Below are positions 34,836-63,044 of a stretch of 64,000 nucleotides of DNA, one piece after another (positions within the stretch are counted from its first letter, which is position 1; each line of letters begins with the position of its first letter). A program made the position numbers and the translations under genes. Under the pieces are notes generated by a model. That model worked only from the letters and a program-made list of their open reading frames with translations. It had not been told where the DNA came from and ran no database searches. The DNA is from Octopus vulgaris (Eukaryota), in assembly GCA_951406725.2 (NCBI GenBank), contig OX597823.1:43586001-43650000 (forward strand), in the 5' to 3' direction.

Positions 34836-37800
34836 TGTTTTATTATTACCCACAAGGGGCAAACAAAGAGGGGACAATACAACCTGATGTGGGGTCAGAT
34901 TCTCGGATGGGGTTACAAAAAGGATGAGATTAAAAATTCAAAAATTCACAAAAATTGCAAAAATTATAAAATCGAATGAATAACAGACCGGAAGACATTA
35001 CAGGTGGAGTGTGGGCGGGTTCAGCTCGGACCCCACGAGCCCCGCCTCCCCACTGATACTTTGGATTCGTCCTGGTTTACATTTATGTGGTGTCATCCAT
35101 TCGCAACTTCCGTGCTACATCCTTCCATCGTTCTTCATACACTTTTTTAGTCAGGCATTTTCTCTCCAGCCCTATCTTCCTTTTCAGGTGGAAGATGAAG
35201 TAATTCATCAACCCAGGGCCGGAGATGAACTTGCCTGACCGTATACCTTTCATTCTCGTCTTCCATATCACCTCTTTCGCAATTGCTACCACAACGAGAA
35301 AACAATTCTTACCTTCTTTCGCGAGGAAATCTGGTGGGTCAATTTTTTTAATACACTCAGTCGACAGCTGTACTCTTCGTGTGCTTGACAACAGCTGTTC
35401 GGCATAAACCCACACCTCAGACACGACCGAACAATGAACAATAGCGTGCGGGACGGTTTCCCTATCCCGCCCGCATCTTGGACACATTTCCGAGCGACGG
35501 AATAGCAGGAGAGCCTTGCGACACTCCGTATACCATGTACCCAGTTTCGATCTACGATTCAACCAGGTTTCCCATCCACCGAAACTTGGGAAACATCAGT
35601 TTTGCTAGAAGACCACACCCGTTCACCATCCAGGTAGAGCCACAGATGTCTTAACCTCAGCGCATGTTTGCGCATCATCAGCCAAGGCATCCCTAGCCCA
35701 CCCTTTAACGGTTGTTGACAGCAAGTAGAGCGTTTCACAAATGGTTTCCCGCCCTTCCACAAGAAGTAGAAGAGCTGTCTTTCCAACTTGATCAACCACG
35801 AATCAGGGCATGGAACGACGGAAAGGCGGTAGGTGATAACCGATGCGATAAACACATTGGCCACCTCCGCCCTCCCTTTCAGGGATAGCCACCGCCAAGA
35901 CCAGGTCTTGGCTACTGCAGCCACCTTGCTCGTTACCTCGCCCCAATTCTTCTATTTGGAGGTCTGGACCGAACCAGACCCCTAGCAGTTTAATCGGACC
36001 CTCCGTCCAACGTCCCACGACGCTGTCAGGAGGCATCGACTTGCCTCTCCAGGTGCCGAGTTGCAAGCCGACTGACTTTTCGCGATTAACTTTTGCTCCT
36101 GTCACCGTCTCGTAATCCTCTATGGCCTTGCCTACTTTACGTAGGTGGTCCATTTCGGTTACGATGATGGTGATGTCGTCCGCGTACGCTGACACTGATT
36201 TTCCATTACCTGGCTGTCTCGGGATGCCGCTCAGTTTTCGCAGTAATGGCTCAAGAGCCATCACGTACAAAAGCGGGGAGAGCGGACACCCTTGACGAAC
36301 CGAGCGTTTGATTTTGAACGGCTTCGACAAGAAGCCGTTCACCCGAACTACCGAGTCGATGTTGTCATAAATTTGGATAATCCACCTGAGGAAGCCAAGG
36401 CTCAGCCCGAACTGTGCCAGGGCAGATACCAGGTAACGATGGTCGACCCTATCAAAAGCCTTGGATTGGTCTAAATGGACCAGTGCCCCACCCTTGCCAG
36501 AATCACTATTAAACCCCTCTATAGTGTACCGCATTAGATGGAGATTATCCTGAATGGTTCTGCCAGGAACGGCACATGTCTGTGCCTCCCCGATCAGACC
36601 ATCCGCGACACGCGCCAATCTTTTCGATAACACTTTGGCCAAAATCTTCAACTCTGTGTTTAGCAGAGTGATGGGCCTGAAATTATCAATGCACTCCCCC
36701 TTGCTCGGGTCCTTTCTGACGAGAGTCACCACTCCCCGGCGCACAGATCTGGGTATAAGCCCGTTCTGCTGCCAGTTCGCATAGACCTCCGCCAGTAGGT
36801 GCCCGAACAAGTCTGGCATACTCTTATATAACTCGTAGGGTAGACCATCCAAACCCGGCGCCTTGCCCGCGCCGCAGTCCGCCATTGCCTCAACCACCTC
36901 CTCAGGCGTGATTGGCCCTTCACAGCCCTCCGCATCTCGCCCGATAAGCGCGGCAGCCCGTCGAGTAGGTCCGTAAAGGCCCTCCTCCTATCCAGCCCGC
37001 CGCACTCACCGAAAAGCTGAGCGAAGTGCTCCTGAAAGGCCTCACACATCTCCTCGGGTTCGTTTATCAACTCACCTTGTTGGTTCTTCAAAGATCGAAT
37101 CGTGGCATCGTTGCCATTCCGAGCTTCCACCACTCGGGCCCATCTCACGGCGTTGATTCCTTCACATCCCGTATGACGGATTCTAGCCCTGACAATGCAG
37201 CCCATGTGTTTGGCCTCGAGGTGCTGGTTTAACACCAGTCTCTTGGACTCCACCTGAGCCGCAGAGCCAGTTTTCATGGCTTCCTCTAATTCCTTAACTA
37301 GAGTAGTTTCCCTTCTAGCCTCTCTAGCCACTACTCCTATGCTATATCTAATTGACTCAAACTTGATGGCTCGTTTGAGGGCGTACCACCATTTGTTATT
37401 AATGATGGCACCAGACAGCGCCCTCTGAATTATAGTCCTAATCCGGTCTCTGTACTCCTTAATCGCCAAAAGAGACGTATTAAGTTTCCAGTAACCGGAT
37501 CCTCTATTTCTAACCTTATCTATGTCAAGCTTACAAGTGACCATTTTATGATCACTGTAGCTGATCTGGTAAAACTGTGGACACTTAGCTATTTTACTGT
37601 CTACCTTTCTAATTAGAATTCTATCTATGTATGACCTGGAAGATCCGTCGCTGTTTGACCATGTCCACAATGGAGCGTTCGGAAATTCCAACCTATAAGG
37701 ATCTGCTAGCTCAAAGCGGCTTAGCAGTTCCAGGAAGCAATAGTTACCTTTTCTATCTGCATTCGAGCCAACACAATCTACATCCGCTTTGCAAATAGTG

Positions 37801-44565: not shown

Positions 44566-47500
44566 AGAGGAGATAAAATTGCAGTTAAAAGATAATGAAA
44601 AAGGAAAATTGAAAAGAATATTTACCAAGACATAAATTATTCTACCCTTGTACAGAGGAAGAAGGACATCAAGAAATAGAAGTAATGAATATTCCCCCAG
44701 AGACGCCTCATGCCTGGTGGCGGCTGAACTGAAAGAAAAAATCACATCCTCCAAGCTACAGTGGAGGAGGAGGGATTTTGGCAGAGATCATAACAATGGC
44801 TATACAAGCAGAGGCCCAGACTCTGAAGAAATACCAGAGGTGCTGAGGCTAGATGAGGAGGATAGTTCTAGTATTTAGAAGGAAGAAAACCGAGGTGCTT
44901 CGGCTGCGGAAAAAGGCACGTAAGAGCAGTGTCAACCGAAACCGCAGACAGAAGCACCGTCGGAGAAAGAAGAAACGGAGGAAAAAAAGGAAACCAAAGA
45001 GGTGGAAAAATCTACAGAGTTGCAAGAAAAAAAAAAAAAAAAAAGAGGAGGGGTGGTCACAGTTACCCAAAAAAAACGGAAGGCGGCTGAAACCACCCCT
45101 CAAGAAGAGAAAACCTGAAAAAGGAAAGAGGTTACTTCTTCATTTATGGCCATTAAGGCTACCAACAACAGACTTGTCAATGTGTTGGCAGCCATGGCCA
45201 AGGTGGAATAAGGAAAAAGACTTCATCATATATAAATAGGCCGGAAGGACTACAGGAGGATAAAATCCAGTTCTTCCACGACCCCTCTGAGACTGGACAT
45301 GTCTCCATATCTACGAGGGCCTACGTCGGACTCCCCCAGAGCCAAAGAAATAAAAACGTGAAGAAGAAGGCGAAAGGCTGTGTCGCCAAACTGATCGATA
45401 TAAGGTAAGTGATGAACTACATTTATGTTGGTTGTTTAAATGTGCGCGGCCTGGGATCAAGCGGGAAGCAAGGTCGCTTCCTTAATGATATCTTCAGGTC
45501 GCGCAATTTGGATGTTAATTGTTTACAGAAACCCGGTTAAAGGAGGGCCAAGAGTACTCCCACTGTTTGACGGCTAGAGTTTTTTCTCTCCTGGCAGTCC
45601 TGCAGGCGGAGAGTGGGGTGTTGGTCCTACAAAAGAGAAACCGGGTTTTTTGAGAAAGTTGGGCAATTTTTCCAGAAATTAGGCTGGTCGTCATGGATTT
45701 GACGTTCAGTAACGGTAAAGTTATCAGACTGGTTGCAATTTACGCACCCTGCAGTATAATGGGCAAAGTGATTATTATCGTGATCTAGAGAACTTTCTCG
45801 GTACTTCGCATTCAATAGTTGTGCTAGGAGACTTTAACACAATTTGCAAAGCGTGGATGTAGATTGTGTTGGCTCGAATGGATAGAAAAGGTAACTCAGG
45901 CTTCCTTGCCAAGCCGCTTGAGCTAGCAGATCCTTATAGGTTGGAATTTCCACGCTCCATTGTGGACATGGTCAAACAGCGACGGATCTTCCAGGTCATA
46001 GATAGAATTCTAATTAGAAAGGTAGACAGTAAAATAGCTAAGCGTCCACAGTTTTCATCAGCTACAGTGATCATAAAATGGTCACCTGTAAGCTTGACAT
46101 AGATAAGGTTAGTAAAGAGAGGATCAGTTACACTTCACCTCCTTTTGGCAGATTAAGGAGTACAGACCGGATTAGGACCATAATTCAGAGGGCGCTGTCT
46201 GGTGCCATCATTAATAACAAATGGTGGTACGCCCTCAAACGAGCCATCAAGTTTGAGTCTATTAGATATAGCATAGGAGTAGTGTCTAGAGAGGCTAGAA
46301 GGGTAACTACTCTAGTTAAGGAATTAGAGGAAGCCATGAAAACTGGCTCTGCGGCTCAGGTGGCGTCCAAGAGACTGGTGTTAAACCAGCACCTCGAGGC
46401 CAAACACATGGGCTGCATTGTCAGGGCTAGAATCCGTCATATGGGATGTGAAGGAATCAACGCCGTGAGATGGGCCCCGAGTGGTGGAAGCCTGGAATGG
46501 CAACGATGCCACGATTCGATCTTTGAAGAACCAACAAGGTGAGTTGATGGACGAACCCGAGGAGATGTGTGAGGCCTTTCAGGAGCACTTCGCTCAGCTT
46601 TTCGGTGAGTGCGGCGGACTGGATAGGAGGAGGGCCTTTACGGACCTACTCGACGGGCTGCCGCGCCTATCATCGGGGCGAGATGCGGAGGCTGTGAAGG
46701 GCCAATCACGCCTGAGGAGGTGGTGGAGGGCAATGGCGGACTGCGGCGACGGGCAAGGCGCCGGGTTTGGATGGTCTACCCTACGAGTTATATAAGAATA
46801 TGCCAGACTTGTTCGGGCACCTACTGGCGGAAGTCTATGCGAACTGGCAGCAGAACGGGTTGATACCCAGATCTGTGCGCCGGGGAGTGGTGACTCTCGT
46901 CAGAAAGGACCCGAGCAAGGGGGAGTGCATTGATAATTTCAGGCCCATCACTCTGCTAAACACAGAGTTGAAGATTTTGGCCAAAGTGTTATCGAAAAGA
47001 TTGGCGCGTGTCGCGGATGGTCTGATCGGGGAGGCACAGACATGTGCCGTTCCGGGCAGAACCATTCAGGATAATCTCCATCTAATGCGGTACACTATAG
47101 AGGGGGTTTAATAGTGATTCTGGCAAGGGTGGGGCACTGGTCCATTTAGACCAATCCAAAGCTTTTTGATAGGGTCGACCATCGTTACCTGGTGTCTGCT
47201 CTGGCACAGTTCGGGACTGGGCCTTGGCTTCCTCAGGTGGATTATCCAAATTTACGACAACATCGACTCGGTAGTTCTGGTGAACGGCTTCTTGTCGAAG
47301 CCGTTCAAAATCAAACGCTCGGTTCGTCAAGGGTGTCCGCTCTCCCCGCTTTTGTACGTGATGGCTCTTGAGCCATTACTGCGAAAACTGAGCGGCATCC
47401 CTGAGACAGCCAGGTAATGGAAAATCAGTGTCAGCGTACGCGGACGACATCACCATCATCGTGACCGAAATGGACCACCTATGTAAAGTAGGCAAGGCCA

Positions 47501-49046
47501 TAGAGGATTACGAGACGGTGACAGGAGCAAAAGTTAATCGCGAAAGTCAGTCGGCTTGCAACTCGGCACCTGGAGAGGCAAGTCGATGCCTCCTGACAGC
47601 GTCGTGGGACGTTGGACGGAGGGTCCGATTAAACTGCTAGGGGTCTGGTTCGGTCCAGACCTCCAAATAGAGAAGAATTGGGGCGAGGTAACGAGCAAGG
47701 TGGCTGCAGTAGCCAAGACCTGGTCTAGGCGGTGGCTATCCTTGAAAGGAGGGCGGAGGTGGCCAATGTGTTTATCGCATCGGTTATCATCTACCGCCTT
47801 TCCGTCGTTCCATGCCCTTGATTCGTGGTTGACCAAGTTGGAAAGACAGCTCTTCTACTTCCTGTGGAAGGGCAGGGGAAACCACTTGTGAAACGCTCTA
47901 CTTGCTGTCAACAACCGTTAAAGGGTGGGCTAGGGATGCCTTGGTTGATGATGCGCAGACATGCGCTGAGGTTAAGACATCTGTGGCTCTACCTGGATGG
48001 TGAACGGGTGTGGTCTCCGTTAGCAAAACTGATGTTTCCCAAGTTCACTAGTTTCGGTGGATGGGAAACCTGGTTGAATCGTAGATCGAAACTCGGTACA
48101 TGGTATACGGAGTGTCGAAAGGCCCTCCTGCTATTCCGTCGCTCGGGCTCAACGCCTGCGGTGGGGGTTCCACCACATTCTTCTATAGAGGGTTGGTAGA
48201 GGCGGAATGTGAAGACACCTTGGGAGAAACCCTGGGTCTCGACGATAATCAGCTGGCTAGTCTGTTCCGACGTACGTTCGAGCCGAAGACTCTGGACAAC
48301 TTCCAGAAGTCTCTGACATGGCAATGCTTACAGAGGAGCTCTACCTGTTCGGGATAAACTCGCAAGGCACGGTGGCCAAGACAGTCCGATGTGTCCAAGA
48401 TGCGGGCGGGATAGGGAAACCGTCCAGCACGCTGTTGTTCATTGTTCGGACGTGTCTGAGGTGTGGGTTTATGCCGAACAGCTGTTGTCAAGCACACGAA
48501 GAGTACAGCTGTCGACTGAGTGTATTAAAAAAATTGACCCACCAGATTTCCTCGCGAAAGAAGGTAAGACTTGTTTTCTCGTTGTGGTAGCAATTGCGAA
48601 GGAGGTGATATGGAAGACGAGAATGAAAGGTATACGGTCAGGCAAGTTCATATCCGGCCCTGGGTTGATGAATTACTTCATCTACCACCTGAAAAGGAAG
48701 ATAGGGCTGGAGAGAAAATGCCTGACTAAAAAGAGTGTATGAAGAACGATGGAAGGATGTAGCACGGAAGTTGAGAATGAATGACACCACATAAATGTAG
48801 ATCAAAACGAAACCAAAAGTATCAGTGGTGAGGCGGGGTACGTGGGGTCCGAGCTGAACCCGCCCCCACTCCACCTGTAGTGTCTTCCGGTCTGTTTTTT
48901 TCTCATTCGATTTTTATAATTTTTGCAATTTTTGTAAATTTTTGAAATTTTTAAACTCATCTTTTGTAACCTCATACGTGAATCTGACCCCACATCAGGT
49001 TGTATTGTCCCCTCTTTGTTGGCCCCTTGTGGGTAATAATAAAACA
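44566..49046 (+). mobile_element. Tx1 element (type E4), 5'-truncated and indel-riddled; array 3 unit 13
   Basis: Collinear with 49047-54345 but broken by frequent indels, densest in 44566-46150. Confidence 0.9.
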
Positions 49047-52000
49047 CCTGATAGGACGTCACTTTGACTTATTCATTGATTCTCAAAAACGAAACGTGAG
49101 TTTTTTGTCTGAAATAGTGTTGTTGAAAGTTAGTAGTTTATTGTTGCTGTGTTAATATTGTTATTTTGTGTCTTTTCAATAAGACGGTGAGTGGCCTTCG
49201 CGCGAAGGTTGTGTACGTAGTTCCCCCCCCGCGGGGGAATTATTGTGTGCCTTCGTGTACGAAACACATCCCAAAAAAAAACAAAAAAAAAAAAAAAAAA
49301 CAAAAAATATTTTCTACTAACGGCTGCAAAGCCAGAATGTCTTTGGAAGGCAGTGAATACAAACTGGAAGGAAAATTCGAAATGGATTTCCCCATTACCT
49401 ATTCACCCATTTCAGGTGATGAAGAATCTCAAACCTCGGGTGAGAGAAGCACGCCGGCGGTGACACCGGAAAAAGAATCGGCGGTAACGCCAGAACAAAA
49501 GGCCCCAACAAAGAAGTTTGCGGAAGTTGTTGGACGCAAACAGAAAGATATAGATATAGAAAACCTAGAGAAATATGAAGACCTTCTAAAGAAAGAAGGA
49601 AATGAAATTGCAGTGAAAAAAGATATGGAAAAAAAGGAAGAGATAGAAAAGAAAAGAATTATATACAAGACATACAGCACGACTACAAAAAGCATACAAA
49701 AAGTGGAAGAATGCAAAATAGAGGAGTGCCTGAAGACAATCAGAAAAGATATCACTTACATCAATAGAGGAAGACGGTTCGGAACAGTAGAAGTGAGGTT
49801 CAGAACCGAAGAAATAGCTAAGAAGCTATCCACAGAACCTCAGAAAGCGGGAAATCTAGTCCTTCTACCCTTGTACAAAGGAAGAAGGACTTCAAAGATA
49901 GTAATGAGAAATATTCCCCCAGAGGCAGACGCCTCATGCCTGGTGGCGGCAGTGATGCTGGGCCTGAAAGAAAAAATCAACATCCTCCAAGCTACAGTGG
50001 AGGAGGAGGGATTTTGGCAGGGCCAGATCATAACAATGGCTATACAAGCAGAGGCCCAGACTCCTGGAAGAAATACCAGAGGTGCTGAGGCTAGATGAGG
50101 AGGAGCGAGTTCTAGTATTTGTAGAAGGAAGAAAACCGAGGTGCTTCGGCTGCGGAAAGAAGGGGCACGTGAGAGCGGAGTGTCAACCGAAACCGCAGGC
50201 AGAAGCACCGTCGGAGAAAGAAGAAACGGAGGAAAAAAAGGAAACCAAAGAGGTGGAAAAAGCTGCAGAAAAGGAAAAAGAAAACGAAAAGAGGAGGGGT
50301 GGTCTAAAGTTACCAAAAAAACGGAAAACTGAAACCACCCCTCAAGAAGAAGAAAACCTAAAGAAAAGGAAAGAGGTTACTTCTTCATTTATGGCCATTA
50401 AGGCTACTAACAACAGACTTGTCAATGTGTTGGCAGCCATGGCCAAGGTGGAACGTATAAGGAAGATGAAAGACTTCATCATATATAAAATAGGCCGGAA
50501 GGACTACAGGAGGATAAAATCCGAGTTCTTCCACGACGTGGGCCCTCTGAGACTGGACATGTCTCCATATCTATGACGAGGGCCTACGTCGGACTCCCCC
50601 ACGAGCCAAAGAAAAAAATGAAGAAGAAGGCGAAACTGCCGAAAAAGCCAAACTACCGATATAAGGTAAGTGATGAACTACATTTATGTTGGTTGTTTAA
50701 ATGTGCGCGGCCTGGGATCAAGCGGGAAGCAAGGTCGCTTCCTTAATGATATCAGGTCGCGCAATTTGGATGTTATTGTTGCTACAGAAACCCGGTTAAA
50801 GGGGCCAAGAGATCTACTCCCACTGTTTGACGGCTACGAGAGTTTTTTCTCTCCTGGCAGTCCTGCAGGCGGGAGTGGGGTGTTGGTCCTACTAAAAAGA
50901 AACCGGGTTTTTGAGAAAAAGTTAATTTTTTCAGACCCAGAAGGTAGGCTGGTCGTCATGGATTTGACGTTCAGTAACGGTAAAGTTATCAGACTGGCTG
51001 CAATTTACGCACCCTGCAGTAATAATGGGCAAAGTGATTATTATCGTGATCTAGAGAACTTTCTCGGTACTTCGCATTCAATAGTTATGCTAGGAGACTT
51101 TAACACAATTTGCAAAGCGGATGTAGATTGTGTTGGCTCGAATGATAGAAAAGGTAACCCAGGCTTCCTGGAACTGCTAAGCCGCTTTGAGCTAGCAGAT
51201 CCTTATAGGTTGGAATTTCCGAACGCTCCATTGTGGACATGGTCAAACAGCGACGGATCTTCCAGGTCATACATAGATAGAATTCTAATTAGAAAGGTAG
51301 ACAGTAAAATAGCTAAGCGTCCACAGTTTTACCCGATCAGCTACAGTGATCATAAAATGGTCACCTGTAAGCTTGACATAGATAAGGTTAGAAAGAGAGG
51401 ATCCGGTTACTGGAAACTTAATACGTCCCTTTTGGCGATTAAGGAGTACAGAGACCGGATTAGGACCATAATTCAGAGGGCGCTGTCTGGTACCATCATT
51501 AATAACAAATGGTGGTACGCCCTCAAACGAGCCATCAAGTTTGAGTCTATTAGATATAGCATAGGAGTAGTGTCTAGAGAGGCTAGAAGGGAAACTACTC
51601 TAGTTAAGGAATTAGAGGAAGCCATGAAAACTGGCTCTGCGGCTCAGGTGGCGTCCAAGAGACTGGTGTTAAACCAGCACCTCGAGGCCAAACACATGGG
51701 CTGCATTGTCAGGGCTAGAATCCGTCATATGGGATGTGAAGGAATCAACGCCGTGAGATGGGCCCGAGTGGTGGAAGCCCGGAATGGCAACGATGCCACG
51801 ATTCGATCTTTGAAGAACCAACAAGGTGAGTTGATAGACGAACCCGAGGAGATGTGTGAGGCCTTTCAGGAGCACTTCGCTCAGCTTTTCGGTGAGTGCG
51901 GCGGACTGGATAGGAGGAGGGCCTTTACGGACCTACTCGACGGGCTGCCGCGCCTATCGGGGCGAGATGCGGAGGGCTGTGAAGGGCCAATCACGCCTGA

Positions 52001-54345
52001 GGAGGTGGTGGAGGCAATGGCGGACTGCGGCGCGGGCAAGGCGCCGGGTTTGGATGGTCTACCCTACGAGTTATATAAGAATATGCCAGACTTGTTCGGG
52101 CACCTACTGGCGGAAGTCTATGCGAACTGGCAGCAGAACGGGTTGATACCCAGATCTGTGCGCCGGGGAGTGGTGACTCTCGTCAGAAAGGACCCGAGCA
52201 AGGGGGAGTGCATTGATAATTTCAGGCCCATCACTCTGCTAAACACAGAGTTGAAGATTTTGGCCAAAGTGTTATCGAAAAGATTGGCGCGTGTCGCGGA
52301 TGGTCTGATCGGGGAGGCACAGACATGTGCCGTTCCGGGCAGAACCATTCAGGATAATCTCCATCTAATGCGGTACACTATAGAGGGGTTTAATAGTGAT
52401 TCTGGCAAGGGTGGGGCACTGGTCCATTTAGACCAATCCAAAGCTTTTGATAGGGTCGACCATCGTTACCTGGTGTCTGCTCTGGCACAGTTCGGACTGG
52501 GCCTTGGCTTCCTCAGGTGGATTATCCAAATTTACGACAACATCGACTCGGTAGTTCGGGTGAACGGCTTCTTGTCGAAGCCGTTCAAAATCAAACGCTC
52601 GGTTCGTCAAGGGTGTCCGCTCTCCCCGCTTTTGTACGTGATGGCTCTTGAGCCATTACTGCGAAAACTGAGCGGCATCCCGAGACAGCCAGGTAATGGA
52701 AAATCAGTGTCAGCGTACGCGGACGACATCACCATCATCGTGACCGAAATGGACCACCTATGTAAAGTAGGCAAGGCCATAGAGGATTACGAGACGGTGA
52801 CAGGAGCAAAAGTTAATCGCGAAAAGTCAGTCGGCTTGCAACTCGGCACCTGGAGAGGCAAGTCGATGCCTCCTGACAGCGTCGTGGGACGTTGGACGGA
52901 GGGTCCGATTAAACTGCTAGGGGTCTGGTTCGGTCCAGACCTCCAAATAGAGAAGAATTGGGGCGAGGTAACGAGCAAGGTGGCTGCAGTAGCCAAGACC
53001 TGGTCTAGGCGGTGGCTATCCCTTGAAAGGGAGGGCGGAGGTGGCCAATGTGTTTATCGCATCGGTTATCATCTACCGCCTTTCCGTCGTTCCATGCCCT
53101 GATTCGTGGTTGACCAAGTTGGAAAGACAGCTCTTCTACTTCCTTGTGGAAGGGCAGGAAACCACTTGTGAAACGCTCTACTTGCTGTCAACAACCGTTA
53201 AAGGGTGGGCTAGGGATGCCTTGGCTGATGATGCGCAGACATGCGCTGAGGTTAAGACATCTGTGGCTCTACCTGGATGGTGAACGGGTGTGGTCTTCTC
53301 CGTTAGCAAAACTGATGTTTCCCAAGTTCACTAGTTTCGGTGGATGGGAAACCTGGTTGAATCGTAGATCGAAACTCGGTACATGGTATACGGAGTGTCG
53401 AAAGGCCCTCCTGCTATTCCGGTCGCTCGGGCAACGCTCGTGGGGGTTCCTGCGGTGGGGTTCCACCACATTCTTCTATAGAGGGTTGGTGGTAGAGGCG
53501 GAATGTGAAGACACCTTGGGAGAAACCCTGGGTCTCGACGATAATCAGCTGGCTAGTCTGTTCCGACGTACGTTCGAGCCGAAGACTCTGGACAACTCCA
53601 GAAGTCTCTGACATGGCAATGCTACAGAGGAGCTCTACCTGTTCGGGATAAACTCGCAAGGCACGGTGGCCAAGACAGTCCGATGTGTCCAAGATGCGGG
53701 CGGGATAGGGAAACCGTCCAGCACGCTGTTGTTCATTGTTCGGACGTGTCTGAGGTGTGGGTTTATGCCGAACAGCTGTTGTCAAGCACACGAAGAGTAC
53801 AGCTGTCGACTGGAGTGTATTAAAAAAATTGACCCACCAGATTTCCTCGCGAAAGAAGGTAAGACTTGTTTTCTCGTTGTGGTAGCAATTGCGAAGGAGG
53901 TGATATGGAAGACGAGAATGAGGTAACACGGTCAGGCAAGTTCATATCCGGCCCTGGGTTGATGAATTACTTCATCTTACCACCTGAAAAGGAAGATAGG
54001 GCTGAAAGACCTGAAAATGCCTGACTAAAAGAGTGTATGAAGAACGATGGAAGGATGTAGCACGGAAGTTGAGAATGAATGACACCACATAAATGTAGAT
54101 CAAAACGAAACCAAAAGTATCAGTGGTGAGGCGGGGCTCGTGGGGTCCGAGCTGAACCCGCCCCCACTCCACCTGTAGTGTCTTCCGGTCTGTTTTTTTC
54201 ATTCGATTTTTATAATTTTTGCAATTTTTGTAAATTTTTGAAATTTTTAAACTCATTCTTTTGTAACCTCATACGTGAATCTGACCCCACATCAGGTTGT
54301 ATTGTCCCCTCTTTTGTTGGCCCCTTGTGGGTAATAATAAAACAC
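49047..54345 (+). mobile_element. Full-length Tx1 element (type E4); unit 14
   Basis: 5'UTR, ORF1 49337/49382-50664, ORF2 50673-54092 and 3'UTR. Confidence 0.95.
50673..54092 (+). pseudogene. ORF2, open through the EN and RT domains, frameshifted after ~53020
   Basis: 810-aa ORF with YADD, followed by collinear fragments. Confidence 0.9.
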
Positions 54346-54361
54346 CCGATAGGACGTTACT

Positions 54362-54412
54362 CCCCGATTGTATTGTCCCCTCTATGTGGCCCCTAGTGGG
54401 TAATAAAGAAAT
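54362..54412 (+). mobile_element. 51-bp 5'-truncated insertion of a family A 3' end; unit 15
   Basis: Matches 56143-56193 with one mismatch; flanked by perfect ccgataggacgttact repeats. Confidence 0.88.
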
Positions 54413-56194
54413 CCGATAGGACGTTACTTCTATGCGTGTTGTTATCTGTGACTAGACGTTGAAATTTTGTTGTGTAAAGTGATTAATATCGCGCGAGGCA
54501 TTTGCCTCCACGTTTGGAAACCTTCCGAAGAAGGTGAATTGACCCTCTAGTCATGGCGACTTACGCGGGGGTCACGGGAAAGAATAATAATGATTCGGCA
54601 ATAATCGTGAAGGATGTTTTCTTTGAGAAGAGTAAACTCAAAGAATATGAAAAACTATTCAAAAGGGAGGGTGATAGCGTGAAGCTAATCCCCCCGCGAA
54701 AGCAAAAGAGGACAAAGAAAACAAAACTGTAACGTATAGAACCCAGGACAAAAGTACAAAGAAACTGGCAAGAGTGGAGATAGCAGAGATCGAAAAATGT
54801 CTGGGAGACATAATGGATAAATCGACCTACGTGAGTAGAGGAAAAAATTTGGTACGGTGGAGGTGAGATGTGCAACGGAAGAAATTGCAGCCTCACTGGC
54901 TACCACTGTTCTAAGAGCGGAAACATTTATAATGTGGCCCTCATACAAGGGAAGAAGAGGGGTCCGGGTTAAAATCCCGAATATACCCCCAGAAGTAAAA
55001 ACAGAATGGCTGGCAACAGCTATTCTAGGAGCAGCAGAAGAGGAAGTGGAGGTGGAATCCTTTAAGGAGTCCAACGCAGTAAATTGGAGAGGATATGGGG
55101 TAGAACTGTGTTTGATGGCCACAAAAGAGGACATTGAAAGGTTCCCTATAGAATAGAAATCGAAGACGAGAAAACCCTCAGTGTAATTGTAGAGGGAAGA
55201 AAACCAAACTGTTACTTGTGTGGGACAAGGGGGCACATTAAAAAAGAGTGCCCGTTATACGAATTCGTAGCGGAGTGCGAGCAGGAACTTGAAGAAAAGA
55301 AGAATACTGTAAATGAAAAAGAAAACATAGAAAAGGAAACAAAACAACAAGAGAAAGGAAATAATAAGTCAACGAAGGAAAAAGAAATAAAAGAAAAGAA
55401 AGAAATAGAACCAAAACAGAGTCAGGAAAAGAAAAAGGAAAAAGAAACAACAGGAAAAAAACAAGAGAGAGATCAGAACCAAACGAAAAGAAAAGACGGC
55501 ACACAAAAAGAAAAAGAAAAGGAACATAAAACACGAGAGAAAGATAGAACAGACAAAGAACCAAAAAGACAAGAGAAGGAAGAAGAAAGAAAAGAAAAAA
55601 AGAGAGAAAGAGAGAAACAAAGAGAGGAGAACAAGGAAGAAGTAAGCCCGAAAAGGAAAACGAGAGAAAACGTAGGACGGAAACAAGATTACTACTACTA
55701 CAAGTTAATAACCTTCCATTTCTGCCCTGAAATGAAAGACTTGACATGGAATATGGAGGGACATATATGGTCAACAGGATGACTGATCAGTGGCAGGAGA
55801 CTGCTCTGATCCCCGAAGAAAGAGTCGCTGAGTTCCTCAGAGCAGCTGGAGAGAGTGTAATATTTCACACGAAGGTTCGAGTAAGAGAGCGGCCGCCTGA
55901 GGGCTCAGTGATTGACTTTAGAGAATTGAAAGCTATTATGGAATACGTATAAAATTGTGAGAAGAGAGAGAAGAAAGAAGAGAAAATAGAAAATTATTGT
56001 GAAATATATGTGACGAAAATGTAACCTCTCGATTCCGGGGATCGAGTGGGCATTTGCATCTCATTGTAAATATTCTTTCATTTGTCATTTTTTTTTTTTT
56101 TTTTTTTTCCTTTTCTTGTCATTCGCTTTCTTATTTTAAGTTCCCCGATTGTATTGTCCCCTCTATGTGGCCCCTAGTGGGCAATAAAGAAATA
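54413..56194 (+). mobile_element. ORF1-only element, family A; unit 16
   Basis: ORF1 54553-55952, frameshifted; shared terminus. Confidence 0.9.
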
Positions 56195-58008
56195 CTGATA
56201 GGAGGTTTGGTTCGGTAGGAACACGTGTCGGAAATCTATGCGTGTTGTTATCTGTGACTTGACGGTGAAATTTTTTCTGTGTAAATTGATTTGATATCGC
56301 GCGAGGCGTTTGCCTCCACGTGTGGAAACCTTCCGAAGAAGGTGAATTGACCCTCTAGTCATGGCGACTTACGCGGGGGTAACCGGGAAAAATAACGATT
56401 CGTCGATAATCATAAAGGAGGTTTTCTTTGAGAAGGATAAACTCAAAGAATATGAAAAGTTTTTCAAAAGGGAGGGTGATAGCGTGAAGCTAATCCCCCC
56501 CCCCGCGAAAGCAAAAGAGGATAAAGAAAGCAAGACAGTGACATACAGAACCCAAGACAAAAATACGAAGAAACTGGCAAGAGTGGAGATAGCCGAAATT
56601 GAAAAATGTCTGGGAGACATAATGGGGAAAATAACCTACGTGAGTAGAGGCAAGAAATTTGGTACGGTGGAGGTGAGATATGCAACGGAAGAAATTGCGA
56701 CCTCACTGGCTACCACCGTACTAAGAGCCGAAAAATTCACAATGTGGCCCTCATACAAGGGAAGAAGAGGGGTCCGGGTTAAAATCCCGAATATACCCCC
56801 AGAAGTGAAAACAGAATGGCTGGCAACAGCTATTCTAGGAGCAGCAGCAGAGGAAGTGGAGGTGGAATCTATTAAGGAGTCCAACGCGGTAAACTGGAGA
56901 GGATATGGGGTAGAATTGTGGTTGATGGCCACAAAAGAGGATATTGAAAGGTTTCCATACAGAATTGAAATTGAAGAGGAAAAAACCCTCAGCGTAATTG
57001 TAGAGGGGAGAAAACCAAACTGTTACTTGTGTGGGACAAGGGGGCACATTAAAAAAGAGTGCCCGTTATACGAATTCGTAGTGGAGTGCGAGCAGGAACT
57101 TGAAGAAAAGAAGAATACTGTAAATGAGAAAGAAAACATAGAAAAGGAAACAAAACAACAAGAGAAAGGAAATAATAAGTCAATGAAGGAAAAACAAATA
57201 AAAGAAAAGAAAGAAATAGAACCAAAACAGAGTCAGGAAAAAAAAGGAAAAAGAAACAATAAGAAAAAAACAAGAGAGGGATCAGAATCAAACGAAAAGA
57301 AAAGACGGCACACAAAAGGAAAAAGAAAAGGAACATAAAACACGAGAGAAAGAGAGAACAGAGAAAGAACCAAAAAGACAAGAGAAGGAAGGAGAAAGAA
57401 AAGAAGACAAAAAGAGAGAAAGAGAGAAACAAAGAGAGGAGAACAAGGAAGAAATAAGCCCGAAAAGGAAAATGAAGGAAAACGTAGGACGGAAACAAGA
57501 TTACTATTACTACAAGTTAGTAACCTTCCATTTCTGCCCTGAAATGAAAGACTTGACATGTAAAACGGAGGGACATATATGGGTCAACAGGATGACCGAT
57601 CGGTGGCAGGAGACTGCTCTAATCCCCGAAGAAAGAGTCGCTGAGTTCCTCAGAGCTGCCGGAGAGAGTGTAATATTTTACACGAAGGTTCGAATGAGAG
57701 AGCGGCTGCCTGAGGGCTCAGTGATAGACTTCAGAGAAGTGGAAACTATGATAGAATACGTATAGAATTGTGAGAAGAAAAAAAAAGAAAAAAAAAGAGA
57801 AAAAAGAAAATTTTGTGAAATATATGTGACGAAAATGTAGCCTCTCGATTCCGGGGATCGAGTGGGCATTTACATCTCATTGTAAATATTCTTTCATATG
57901 TCATTTTTACTTTTATTTTTTCCTTTTCTTGTCATTCGCTTTCTTATTTTAAGTTCCCCGATTGTATTGTCCCATCTATGTTCGCCCCTAGTGGGTAATA
58001 AAGAAATA
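56195..58008 (+). mobile_element. ORF1-only element, family A; unit 17
   Basis: ORF1 56361-57765 with one apparent frameshift in an A-run near 57240. Confidence 0.92.
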
Positions 58009-58190
58009 CCGATAGGATGTTACTTATTCATCGATACTCAAAAACTGAACTTTCACCAACTGAATACTCGTCATGTAGTGCCTTACTGCTTTCTGCTGGA
58101 TTTTACCTCGAGAAAGGAACCCTGAGGAAGGAGGGCTGAATTTCGAATACTTCGTACAAAAAACGGCTGCAGGTTAGGAAAAAAAATTAA
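58009..58190 (+). mobile_element. 5'UTR remnant of an E3/E4-like element terminating array 3
   Basis: gatactcaaaaactgaacttt matches the 5' end of unit 12 (reverse complement of 39786-39806). Confidence 0.65.
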
Positions 58191-58255
58191 TCGCCTCTTT
58201 CAATTTAGGTTTTCATTTTTCATGTTTTTATTTGTATTTCATTGTTATGTTTATA

Positions 58256-58738
58256 TTGGGTTGTCCGGAAAGTTCGTTCCGATTTTTAAAGGAAAGTACA
58301 TGGTCACTAAATACTCTTCCCAGAATTGGGGTGGTTTCAAGGCAGATAATTCATCAAGGTATCTTTTTACGTCATCTAAGGAATTGAAATTTTCACCATT
58401 AAGACTATTCTGCAAAGACCTGAATAAGTGGAAATCCGAAGGAGTAATATCTGGTGAATATGGAGGGTGGGGTAAGTCACCCCAGCCAAGCTGCAGCAAT
58501 TTTTGTCTGGTTCCCAAAGCATCAAATGCCGATAATGAATTTTTCTCATCTTTTAATTTAAAGGGTTACAGAATTAACACAGGTTATTGGAACATAAACC
58601 TTCTTCCACGAAAAGATAGATTAAACTGTGCTCCAAATGGAGGTGTAGTCAAATCCTATTTTATGGACTCAAACATGTTCTAAAATAAGTCGAAAGATAA
58701 GCTACTATAAATCTGCAAGAACTTTCCGGACAACCCAA
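58256..58738 (-). mobile_element. Internally deleted mariner element
   Basis: TIRs ttgggttgtccggaaagttc / gaactttccggacaacccaa, TA duplications and transposase remnant HPPYSPDITPSDFHLF. Confidence 0.93.
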
Positions 58739-59138
58739 TATTTCTATATTTTTATCATGAAATTCTTAATATAAATATGTGGATATTCGTATGGAATAAT
58801 ACCTCATGTGCTACATCTGAATTTTCTTGTCTGAATGTTTTAAGACAAATATCCGAAATTTTTATCGTATACCACATTTTATTAATACTTAGCTCATATA
58901 CGGAGACAAAAATGTTGTACTATATACTGCAGGTTATCTCCATTAAAATTATATTTAGCATTAGAATTCTTCAAGTAGTATAAAAATGGTTATTGTCTGC
59001 ATCATTCGAAAGCGAAATAAATTTTGCATAAGGTGTAAAAGATAAAAAATAATTTGTATGGTGTTAGTAACAAAATATTTTGTAAGAAATAGAACTTTTA
59101 TCGTCTGTCTTAAATATATTTTCGCCAGTGTATATATC

Positions 59139-61700
59139 TCAGGTCATCCCATAAGTTCTGTCTGAATTTTGGATAAAGAATACAAGTGATCAAATGTTAT
59201 ATTCAATTGAAAGTTAATCATCAATGTACTTTCCCTAATTATCTATGACTTACCTCCATCTATTTACAAGCTTTTTAATCCCATCAACGTAAAACTCTTT
59301 TGGTTTGAAAGCGAAGAACTCTGAAATGTCAGGTTCGACCTCCCCCTGGCTTGCGAAAGTTGTATCCCCCTACTAATTCTGTAAACTATGAAACAAATGG
59401 TATCCTGAAGGAGTAAGGTCGGGAGAATAAGTTGGATGAAGAAATTTTTCCAAACCGACCCCTTCGATCTTCTGTGATGTGATCTTTGCAGTATGGGGTT
59501 GCGCATTGTCCTGATGAAACATCACTCGTTTTCGACTCACTAAAGCGGCTCTTTTTTCCTTCAAAGCTTGGTTCAAACACTCTAATTGCTGACAGTAGAC
59601 TTGAGCATTGATTGTTGCATTAGGTGGTAACAATATAAAGTGAATTACGCCTTTGCAATCGCACCAGATAGAGAGTAGAACCTTTTTCCCATGAAGTTCC
59701 CTTCTCGGTTGTGGTTGAGAATTTTCCCTTTTACCAAGCCACTGTTTACGACGTCTAACATTTCGATAGAAAATCCATTTTTCATCACAAGTCTATCGAA
59801 AAAGGGTGAAATGAGTTTGCGAGAATGGAGAGAAGAGCAGATGCCAACTCGGGATTTGCGGTTGCTTTCGGACAATACATAAGGCACCTATTTTCCAAGT
59901 TTAGGAACCTTTCCACGTTGTTGAAGATGACGATGAACTGTTGTATGGTTTGAAGTAAGCTTTATTGTCAATTCTTCAACTGATAATGACGGATTTTCTT
60001 CAAGTAATGCCTCAAGGAGCTTGTCAAACTCAACTGGACATCCTGTTCGATATTCATCTTCAATTTTGCAGACGATCTCCTGCAAGTTCTTTCATTCGAG
60101 CACTTTGCTATAAACTGAGTGTATGTTTCGAGTCACTTCGGCATCAGAGTTACCTTTATTGTACTCATAAAGAATTATATGTGCCTTAAATGCTCCTTGG
60201 ATACTTCCATGTTGAAAGGGTTTTAATCAAAGCAATTTTAGGGTGTCCACGAAGTCTGGGTTTATGGAATAAAATCATGACATAAACAAATAAATATAAG
60301 AAATAATAATTTTCCTTTTTTACTTTTGTTTAAATTAAATTTAAAAAATACTTTACTTTTCTAAATTTATTTGTTATTTTTTCTACAGATGATCGAATGA
60401 TGGCTCTGTCTAAAGAAGAAAGAATCCCAGATCGAATGATGAATCTGTCTAAAGAAGAAAGAATCGAGTTAGTATTATTAAGTGGACGAGAGGGATGGTC
60501 TTATCGCAAAATTGCGGAAGAATTTAATCTTCCACACCCTTGTAGGTAACCTATTTATTTTACTGCCGTCAGGAAATTGATCAAGAAATTTAAAGAAACA
60601 AGCAGTGTTTCGGATAAACCCCGTTCCGGGCGACCAAAGACTTCAGATGAAACTAAAGAGGCTGTCGAGGCTAAAGTTTCTGCTAGCTAGCCCCAAAAAT
60701 CACTTCGTCGGACATCTACGGTGTTAGGTGTTCCAAAACCAACCATCCACAAAATGCTGGTTGAGGAAAAGTTTCATCGATACAACCTACAGATATTGCA
60801 TCACTTAAATTAAGACGATCCTGATAGACGAATAAATTGGATGAAAATATCAATTTTACGAAAAACTTTGTGTTGTTCAGTGACAAAGCTACGTTTTATG
60901 TAAATGGTGAGGTCAACAGACAGAATCTTCTATACTGGTCTCGAGGTAATCCACATTGGATGGATCTATCCAAACAGCAAGACAGCAAAAAGGTGATGGT
61001 GTGGTGTGGTTTTTGGAAAGCTCATGTTCTAGGACCCTTCTTCATTGAACATGTAACGGATGAGACTTATGCAAATATATTGAGAGACAAATTAATATCT
61101 TAAATTGAGCGCCTAGGCGAGGACCTTCCGAATTGGTTTCAGCAGGATGGGGCCCCTACCCATTTTGCCACAACTGTTAGAGATTGATTTAATGACACTT
61201 TTCCTCCTCACTAGATTGGAAGAAGGGGTCATATGGAATGGTCCCCTCGTTCACCAGACCTTTCTCCCCTTGATTTCTTTTTCTGTGGTATGTTGAAAGA
61301 GAAAGTTTACTCAATAAAGATTACAGATTTAAAACACATGAGAGAACGCATTACCAGTCAGTGTGCTTAAATTGATGGCAATGTAGACTTATTTAATCAA
61401 GTTCACCTGAATTTTGCAAGGCGCATCAAGTTATGCATTGAAAATGATGGAAATCACTTTGAAAATATTATTTATTATAATTAAATAAAATTGATTTGTT
61501 TTAAAAGTATGTGTTAATTCCCATGTACGCAGACTTTGTGGACACCGTCTATTATTTTGTAAAACAATATTGAATTAGTTTAAACGTACACAAATGCATA
61601 AAAATAATTTTTAATTGAATTAGACATTTGCAAATACTATTAAATTTCATTCAACTCTAAAAAACATGTAAAATTGGACAGAACTGACTGGATGACTTGA
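59139..61700 (-). mobile_element. Decayed mariner element, interrupted by a Tc1-superfamily insertion
   Basis: Imperfect TIRs tcaggtcatcccataagttctgtc / gacagaactgactggatgacttga; transposase pseudogene ~60210-59200 (MEVSKEHLRH, HQDNA, YSPDLTPS). Confidence 0.85.
60241..61549 (+). mobile_element. Tc1/mariner superfamily element, DD41D (rosa/VS)-like pseudogene
   Basis: TIRs gggtgtccacgaagtctg / cagactttgtggacaccg; RSGRP, FSDKATF and FQQDGAP...SPDLSPLDFF, with 41 codons counted between the second and third Asp. Confidence 0.83.
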
Positions 61701-62405
61701 TATATATATTCTATGATATTCTAGTAAGTTTCAAGTTTATAACACCTTGATATCTCATGTTATTTCATTTTATATGCCTAAGACGTTTATTTTCTATTCT
61801 GGTTTTTATATATTTCTATACATTATATTTGTATCTATAATTTATTTTAAGCCGAAACATAATACGATCCTTGTACGAACGAAAGAACAAGAATGTCCTC
61901 TGGAACGTTTATCTTCCACCGGCGTTTGTAATCGATGGTGACATGTGCGATGATTTTGCGACTATCTTATATTTTACAGAGAAATTGGAAGCCCCGAATG
62001 TAAGTCAGCGCTTTATGCATAATTCAATATTTATAGTTCTCTATTTCTAACAGAAATTCTGTCCTCAATAACTATAGATCTATTTCTAAATGTATTTCTT
62101 TTCCTTCATGCACTCCCGTCTGTCTCTTGACAAAGCTTTCTTTCTCCAGCGTTCACCACGTCACCTCGTTAGGGTTAAACAGCCCTTAGCGAAAATTTTG
62201 ACTGTCCTGATTTTGTTAGCAGCTTTGACGTTCCACGTATCTCAAATTTTATCTAATTTGGTTTGGGAGAGCAATTGCTTTGACGAAGACACATCTTGTT
62301 GCAATGCGGAGCAAGTAAAGTTGCCAACATCTGAGGAAGAGTTGTTTGTTTTTTTTTTATATTCTGCCTTCACGCTATAGTTCTCTATGTAATTAAGATT
62401 CTTCT

Positions 62406-62448
62406 GCCAAGCCAAGCCAAGCCAAGCCAAGCCAAGCCAAGCCAAGCC
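62406..62448. repeat. (GCCAA)n pentanucleotide repeat
   Basis: Direct reading. Confidence 0.95.
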
Positions 62449-63044
62449 TTCTGTTAATAGTGGTACGACCACAGCCATAGCGCTCACTGTGGTCTCGTAG
62501 CCGTGGACAGTGTGCCCAATGTCGCCCAGAGCCCAGCTCAACACACTCCTTATACCCTAAGTAAGTCATGTGTAAAATTTGAATGAAATTGGTTGTGTAG
62601 TTCTCAAGTTTTAGGGAAACACACAGACAGACAGACACACATTCTCAGATACATAAAAGAATGAGAGTGGGTGATGTTTTGTTTGTTGGACCAATGTATT
62701 AAGGTTGTATTGTTTTATTGTTTTAAAACGAAAGAGGCAATGTGTTCGTTTCAAAAATAAAAAAGACAAACGTCCGCCAATGGGAAGACAGTTCATATTC
62801 GATTAGAGCACTCTGGGTATAATCATAAAAGTGAAAAATGGAATTTTTAGGCAAATCAAACAGTGAAAAACCAAAAACAAAAACATTAAAAAAATATATA
62901 ATATAGAAAATATAAAATTGAAAAATTTAAATTAAATTGAAAATAAAAATTATTAAATTATATTTATAATTTGTTTAAAAATATATATAACTATGAAAAA
63001 GTATGAGAAAGTTTAATATACATAACTACAGATATATACACTTT

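Follow-up and report, generated by a model that had tools for sequence, protein, structure and literature searches.

A 51-nt retrotransposon stub bracketed by a 16-bp duplication in an Octopus vulgaris element array

By what event did a 51-nt piece of a retrotransposon come to lie between two identical 16-mers, and were the elements that now stand on either side of it already neighbours when it arrived? The locus that raises this question belongs to a 64-kb window, the whole stretch of Octopus vulgaris DNA analysed here (positions 43,586,001 to 43,650,000 of contig OX597823.1). An earlier note, made from the letters of the window, had read the piece as a 5′-truncated product of target-primed reverse transcription (TPRT) that landed at a junction between two elements.

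The array and the anatomy of the stub

The window contains three head-to-tail arrays built from 5.3-kb units (B) and from units of 1.5–1.9 kb with homology to ORF1 only, among them the 1.8-kb A units; ORF2 homology is absent from the A, C, D and E units, and all units share a 3′ terminal motif and lack poly(A). The B units carry ORF1 and an ORF2 with an APE endonuclease, a reverse transcriptase (RT) and a C-terminal zinc domain (Pfam Exo_endo_phos, RVT_1 and zf-RVT). The best solved relative of B ORF2 is human L1 ORF2p (E 3e-68, versus 5e-25 for R2) and the best named relative, among the 120 matches listed, comes from Argonauta; the B units are L1-group non-LTR retrotransposons. No named Tx1 reference occurs among the 120 ORF2 matches listed, and we call the family Tx1-like on the basis of its architecture and target specificity, not of RT phylogeny.

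The stub lies in the third array, all features of which are on the + strand. Unit 13 (44640–49047), a B14-type unit without its 5′ part that stands head to head against array 2, is followed by unit 14 (49048–54345), an autonomous B14-type non-LTR element with an ORF1-like region and an ORF2 with APE endonuclease and RT; its ORF2 is frameshifted, it has no poly(A) tail and it opens with its own copy of the 16-mer (two mismatches). Downstream of the stub come unit 15 (54429–56193), an ORF1-only unit of family A with a frameshifted ORF1 and no ORF2 homology, and unit 16 (56194–58008), a further ORF1-only A unit with ORF1 at 56361–57338 and a CCHC knuckle. The array ends at the downstream half of host repeat 2 (58009–62532), a dispersed nested-repeat block that is 94–99% identical to four other copies; this half opens with the native target 16-mer (58009–58024). 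Arrays 2 and 3 join head to head at 44568–44640, both without 5′ parts; over its first 2.5 kb, array 3 shows 15–19 gap openings per 500 nt against unit 14, compared with 0–8 in the mirror arm, and the join could be a fold-back read or an inversion artefact.

The first 16-mer (54346–54361) and the second (54413–54428), which is the leader opening unit 15, are perfectly identical and enclose 51 nt (54362–54412) directly after the 3′ end of unit 14, exactly as the earlier note had described. These 51 nt correspond to the final 51 nt of family A (one mismatch to unit 15's own end) and begin 4 nt ahead of the terminal motif common to A, B and E units. The duplication measures 15–16 bp, since its final T is equally a match to the family A sequence that precedes the stub portion. 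Direct repeats of 16 bp less than 100 bp apart occur at 12 places in the 64-kb window, so a short repeat alone is not rare; the part not due to chance is that both 16-mers lie exactly at 3′ ends and that what they enclose is the conserved 3′ terminal motif. The 51-mer folds into a weak hairpin only (−8 kcal/mol, calculated without a shuffle control), which we did not use as evidence.

The stub junction was assembled a second time, with small deletions, within a 12-kb duplicate of the block at G000:C10:34.73 Mb. The 24 sequencing runs listed all consist of contigs, with none on record for RNA. Contig depth over the first and second 16-mer was 229 and 45 in run X1, 17 and 0 in X4, and 0 and 0 in X10 and X9; among the pieces listed for these four runs none spanned the joint between 16-mer and stub, and no empty-allele joint was seen in their contig joints. 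We rejected the C10:34.73 Mb copy as a means of dating unit 14: its B unit groups apart from unit 14, yet it has blocks of alleles from the abundant subfamily. Such allele blocks of the most abundant subfamily were seen both in unit 15 (54429–56193) and in the B unit of the duplicate (G000:C10:34.731 Mb), which suggests short-read polishing or gene conversion.

Host repeats and the identity of the 16-mer

Arrays on several chromosomes share flanks, and their insertion sites lie in dispersed repeats of other kinds. The site in host repeat 1 is fixed and has empty alleles: its upstream flank gave 397 exact matches, the first 30 of which include 29 empty sites that have one copy of the target, and 105 filled 3′ junctions fall at this one site, a target-sequence preference of the Tx1 type. 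Host repeat 1 is about 1 kb long and has a 5′ Helitron motif in 25 of 30 loci and a 3′ motif in 26 of 30, most copies running from TC to CTAG between A and T. Non-autonomous Helitrons are recognized by a 5′ TC, a 3′ hairpin followed by CTAG, insertion between A and T of the host site, and the absence of a target-site duplication (TSD). By these marks host repeat 1 is a Helitron-like non-autonomous element. In copies L068–L097 the repeat carries a decayed ORF1 fragment of the B/A element family that spans the cut site (tblastn E down to 1e-14).

Host repeat 2, in which the stub's array resides, consists of more than 5 kb of nested repeats whose copies are 91–99% alike, with several nearby sites used. 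Helitron-like pieces occur at 62554–62648 and about 5 kb upstream, and the shared sequence extends beyond both. Just past the window, at about 1040–1400 of locus L218, is a helicase-like fragment, of Helitron/PIF1 type by eye, and the duplicate block ends inside it. Since C/D-type and some B14 units insert tens of nucleotides upstream of the main site (L183, L223, L212, L175/L176), the subfamilies use offset positions within one host flank. A small-RNA gene as the target was rejected, the window having zero Rfam matches at the gathering threshold and zero tRNAs.

A degenerate-pattern search of the genome for the 16-mer returned 15 exact matches, seven of which start B14-type units, three start A units, three are the native start of the flanking repeat, one precedes the stub and one is unrelated. 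(A backwards-pattern control gave counts equal to the forward ones, 8 and 7, and was not used.) From these contexts, the 16-mer is a target sequence captured as a 5′ leader by two lineages, B14 and one A lineage, and not a sequence private to the junction. No empty allele of the site with the exact 16-mer variant was present among the 15 matches. The unit 15 leader formed by the second 16-mer also starts, with one mismatch and without a stub, an A copy at G000:C8:99.907 Mb. Because position 10 is C in both stub 16-mers, and thus in the unit 15 leader, and T in the native target of the block (58009), the duplicated copy came from unit 15's leader.

The earlier note had also seen related leaders after the other 3′ ends of the array. 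The likeness holds at 49048 (two mismatches) and at 58009 (one mismatch) and is limited at 56195 to about the first 13 nt; nor do the three form one class, as 49048 is the leader that B14 carries, 56195 the one carried by an A lineage, and 58009 the native target. The leader of unit 16 is a stack (56195–56236) of a repeat 2 B-type leader followed by the standard A leader, and the same stack recurs at C3:93.39, C8:110.08 and C10:34.73 Mb. Pure runs of 5–14 A units (the L186, C1, C7 and C22 arrays) have one array-specific leader each, a pattern that may reflect serial insertion or unequal exchange. Many A copies also carry in the 3′ UTR, about 170 nt before the end (L186), a word resembling the upstream flank of host repeat 2, with a short hairpin after it.

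In 18 of 19 repeat-1 flanks a TATA-like word starts 39 nt before the cut, and in five repeat-2 flanks this distance is 38–43 nt; the counts come from copies of two repeats only and have no chance control. We tentatively entertain, as a possibility less likely to be right than wrong, that the family carries its own target: each TSD would be captured as the next 5′ leader, leaders would stack and recombine, and the choice of cut site would depend less on sequence than on position, which in both host repeats is about 39 nt behind a TATA-like box. If so, a single endonuclease could take up 16-mers unrelated to one another and build trains that extend in one direction and include ORF1-only passengers, and stubs of 17–51 nt would map the minimal RNA 3′ module engaged by the RT.

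Origin of the stub and order of events

Five other truncated copies with TSDs bear on the origin of the stub. Duplications of 16 bp flank a 2.4-kb truncated copy that stands solo in an intact host site (L211), a 1.5-kb truncated copy at C1:64.24 Mb and an off-target truncated copy (L310); an 8-bp duplication flanks a further truncated copy (L232); and a 21-bp duplication, 4 bp of it microhomology, accompanies a 45-bp micro-insert at a bare host site (L304). The last insert consists of the duplication and the final 24–28 nt of an element and is a direct sister of the stub. In a search for inserts with the flank and a 16-bp TSD, L211 was the one insert among the 30 examined of 36 matches, the others being empty-site variants. 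The 16-nt boundary recurs elsewhere: B14 and A15 sequence starts after the 16-mer, and a second host repeat 2 site (L170) likewise gives 16 bp. In the host-repeat-1 set, 18 truncated copies have a readable 5′ joint, and by a count made by eye only 4 of these keep the TSD; most of the others run into deleted or unrelated upstream DNA, and two further stubs in repeat 2, of about 38 and 17 nt, are accompanied by target deletions. The stub itself combines an intact element 3′ end, a 5′ truncation and a TSD of the length typical of the family (15–16 bp). On the strength of the TSDs on other truncated copies and of the sister L304, and despite retention in 4 of 18, a target-primed origin of the stub, as the earlier note had proposed, is very probable.

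The source RNA is less firmly marked. The match to the last 51 nt of family A stands, and what distinguishes the stub as A-type amounts to 4–5 nt, namely four C's and one shared T; its last 47 nt occur exactly at six places, which are the two stubs, one A end and three ends of ORF2-bearing B units. Derivation from an ORF1-only A RNA is thus probable but thinly marked, and to call the stub the most direct evidence of mobilization in trans, as had been done, overstates it. Better evidence comes from host sites that hold nothing but one full-length A copy (for example, L088, L178, L214 and L233). Family A is HAL1-like in having ORF1, lacking ORF2 and sharing its 3′ end with an autonomous partner, and from the solo copies in host sites we infer that it is mobilized in trans by the ORF2 of that partner.

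The order in which units joined an array can be approached through its polarity. In 95 regions, drawn from most of the 100 host-repeat-1 junctions listed, a short unit (A and E; C/D ends were not counted) is the immediate upstream neighbour of B in 21 cases and its immediate downstream neighbour in 0; B closes the row of units in 75 of the 95. When leaders were compared with the next unit's leader or with the native target in 55 pairs, the next unit was closer in 34 and the native target in 6, with 15 ties; clear cases of 14–17 nt copied from the B leader are L195, L203, L275 and L307. This comparison rejects growth at the native 3′ joint and does not separate 5′-edge growth from internal insertion. 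Together, the 21:0 polarity and the leader pairs indicate that short units insert upstream of existing leaders and avoid the joint between B end and target, and the polarity suggests that arrays probably grow at their 5′ edge. Several observations stand against a 5′-edge order: the 21:0 count comes from loci of host repeat 1 that may be non-independent, and the stub lies in host repeat 2; array 1 of the window has B upstream of short units; and in L216 a truncated A abuts an upstream A from which the final few bases are absent, so that L216 could be an internal insertion. At the stub locus the order is not directly readable, because array 3 lacks its upstream host flank.

With these points weighed, we think it somewhat probable that the stub is an aborted target-primed copy of a family A RNA that landed at what was then the 5′ edge of the array, immediately upstream of unit 15 and earlier than the arrival of unit 14, and the simplest order of events would be unit 16, unit 15, stub, unit 14 and unit 13. 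The ORF2 protein of an autonomous B element would bind the shared 3′ terminal motif of the RNA, nick the bottom strand just before the 16-mer and prime reverse transcription there. Synthesis would halt after 51 nt, just beyond the conserved motif, and a top-strand nick 15–16 nt downstream, with 1 nt of microhomology, would yield the duplication. This would re-create the 16-mer beside the host flank, making the first 16-mer the presumed later landing site of B14 (unit 14) and then of B13.

The present anatomy fits equally well with retrotransposition of the stub into a unit 14/unit 15 junction that already existed, and this reading has further points in its favour: a B 3′ end lies upstream in both C10 copies, L216 may be just such an internal insertion, and the 6 of 55 leader pairs closer to the native target than to the next unit are compatible with it. 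We nevertheless regard it as unlikely, given that the arrangement of B end, 16-mer and A that would represent the empty junction is absent among the 15 exact 16-mer matches, that the ratio of 21 short units before B to 0 after its end has p ~1e-6 (only if loci are independent), and that an equivalent micro-insert (L304) sits at a bare host flank. The earlier note's landing at element–element junctions is unsupported on these three grounds. A longer A unit between the 16-mers could also have been trimmed by a DNA-level deletion; an A 3′ end followed by the 16-mer and an A body does exist at C8:99.907 Mb, and internal deletions occur in other units. Such a deletion, however, would have to start precisely at the 16-nt boundary used by other insertions, with 1 nt of homology, which makes this origin very improbable.

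An equally improbable course is that the transcript of unit 15 began inside the 3′ end of the upstream unit and carried the 51 nt and the 16-mer with it, as HeT-A copies are described to bear short tags of the upstream element (10.1101/782904). Read-through is likely in head-to-tail arrays, and near-identical 16-mers stand at both ends of the block that reaches from the stub to unit 16; these outer 16-mers differ at position 10, however, whereas the inner pair is identical. Nor is the 51-mer a fixed part of A 5′ ends: among 83 A starts (123 regions), 55 follow a long unit, 26 a host flank and 2 a stub, and the two are the stub locus and its 12-kb duplicate at C10:34.73 Mb, a copy and not a second event. 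HeT-A-type tags as a regular feature of A starts were rejected on this count, and genome patterns for two 3′ ends 12–73 nt apart recovered only both stub copies and one unrelated match. Least likely of all is an assembly or polishing artefact of the repeat array, to which the many frameshifts and abundant-subfamily allele blocks in the units and the absence of a spanning contig among those listed would lend themselves: the stub was assembled twice, 9 Mb apart, in copies that otherwise differ, and its sister events lie at unrelated loci. The target-primed reading makes the stub a good ruler for cut geometry; it is not evidence for landing between elements.

Relation to known systems

Taken alone, the stub is an ordinary product of a known mechanism. 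With its sisters it serves as a ruler that puts the nick stagger at about 16 nt and delimits the 3′ RNA module likely recognized by the enzyme, which makes the system testable in vitro and relevant to work on site-specific retrotransposons. The wider system, in which ORF1-only passengers probably stack one-directionally, with leaders they have captured, at fixed positions of Helitron-like repeats, unites behaviours known separately from R1, Tx1-Mar/SINEU and HAL1/HeT-A. HeT-A and the related telomeric elements belong to the Jockey clade, are telomeric and end in poly(A). The accounts in PMC13534243 and 10.1101/782904 describe HeT-A and other ORF1-only telomeric Jockey elements as head-to-tail arrays dependent on the ORF2 of another family, with short 3′-end pieces between units, features that recall the octopus arrays; in those accounts HeT-A tags stem from an upstream promoter, whereas the octopus stubs are rare and bracketed by TSDs.

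The tandem arrays of Drosophila R1 form, according to PMC2718515, when a new copy inserts into the 5′ TSD of one already in place. As described there, R1 is likewise a site-specific APE-type element with a 14-bp TSD on full-length and 5′-truncated copies, microhomologies and growth from the TSD at the 5′ end. R1, in contrast, resides in 28S rDNA with one TSD sequence, whereas the octopus family resides in dispersed repeats, has leaders that differ from array to array and are in part carried, and includes ORF1-only units in its arrays. In crocodilians, tandem copies of SINEU-3 are reported to flank a 16-nt TSD within Mariner-N4_AMi, and Tx1-Mar is the presumed agent of their movement (PMC4494074). 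This system and Xenopus Tx1 in Tx1D, as presented in the same source, resemble ours in that Tx1-clade elements target a non-autonomous DNA transposon, and SINEU-3 also in its 16-nt TSD and in tandem non-autonomous passengers that sandwich a TSD; the octopus system differs in its Helitron-like host, its ORF1-coding passengers and its arrays of 8–14 units. HAL1 (half-L1; PMC5753468) is, like family A, a non-autonomous L1-group derivative that codes for ORF1p only, and the passage on it reports neither site specificity nor arrays, both of which family A has. An octopus repeat library described in PMC13282606 lists 13 recently active L1-Tx1 families. No paper on this combined behaviour was listed in a search that reached only a minority of subscription journals and did not extend to Repbase.

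A repeat with a tRNA-like head, recognized by eye, and a tail like the 3′ motif of the elements occurs on the reverse strand of L167 at about 1900–2150 and on the − strand of the window at 34843–34780. The B/A element family may be the LINE partner of this repeat, to which the 3′ flank of array 2 is also similar.
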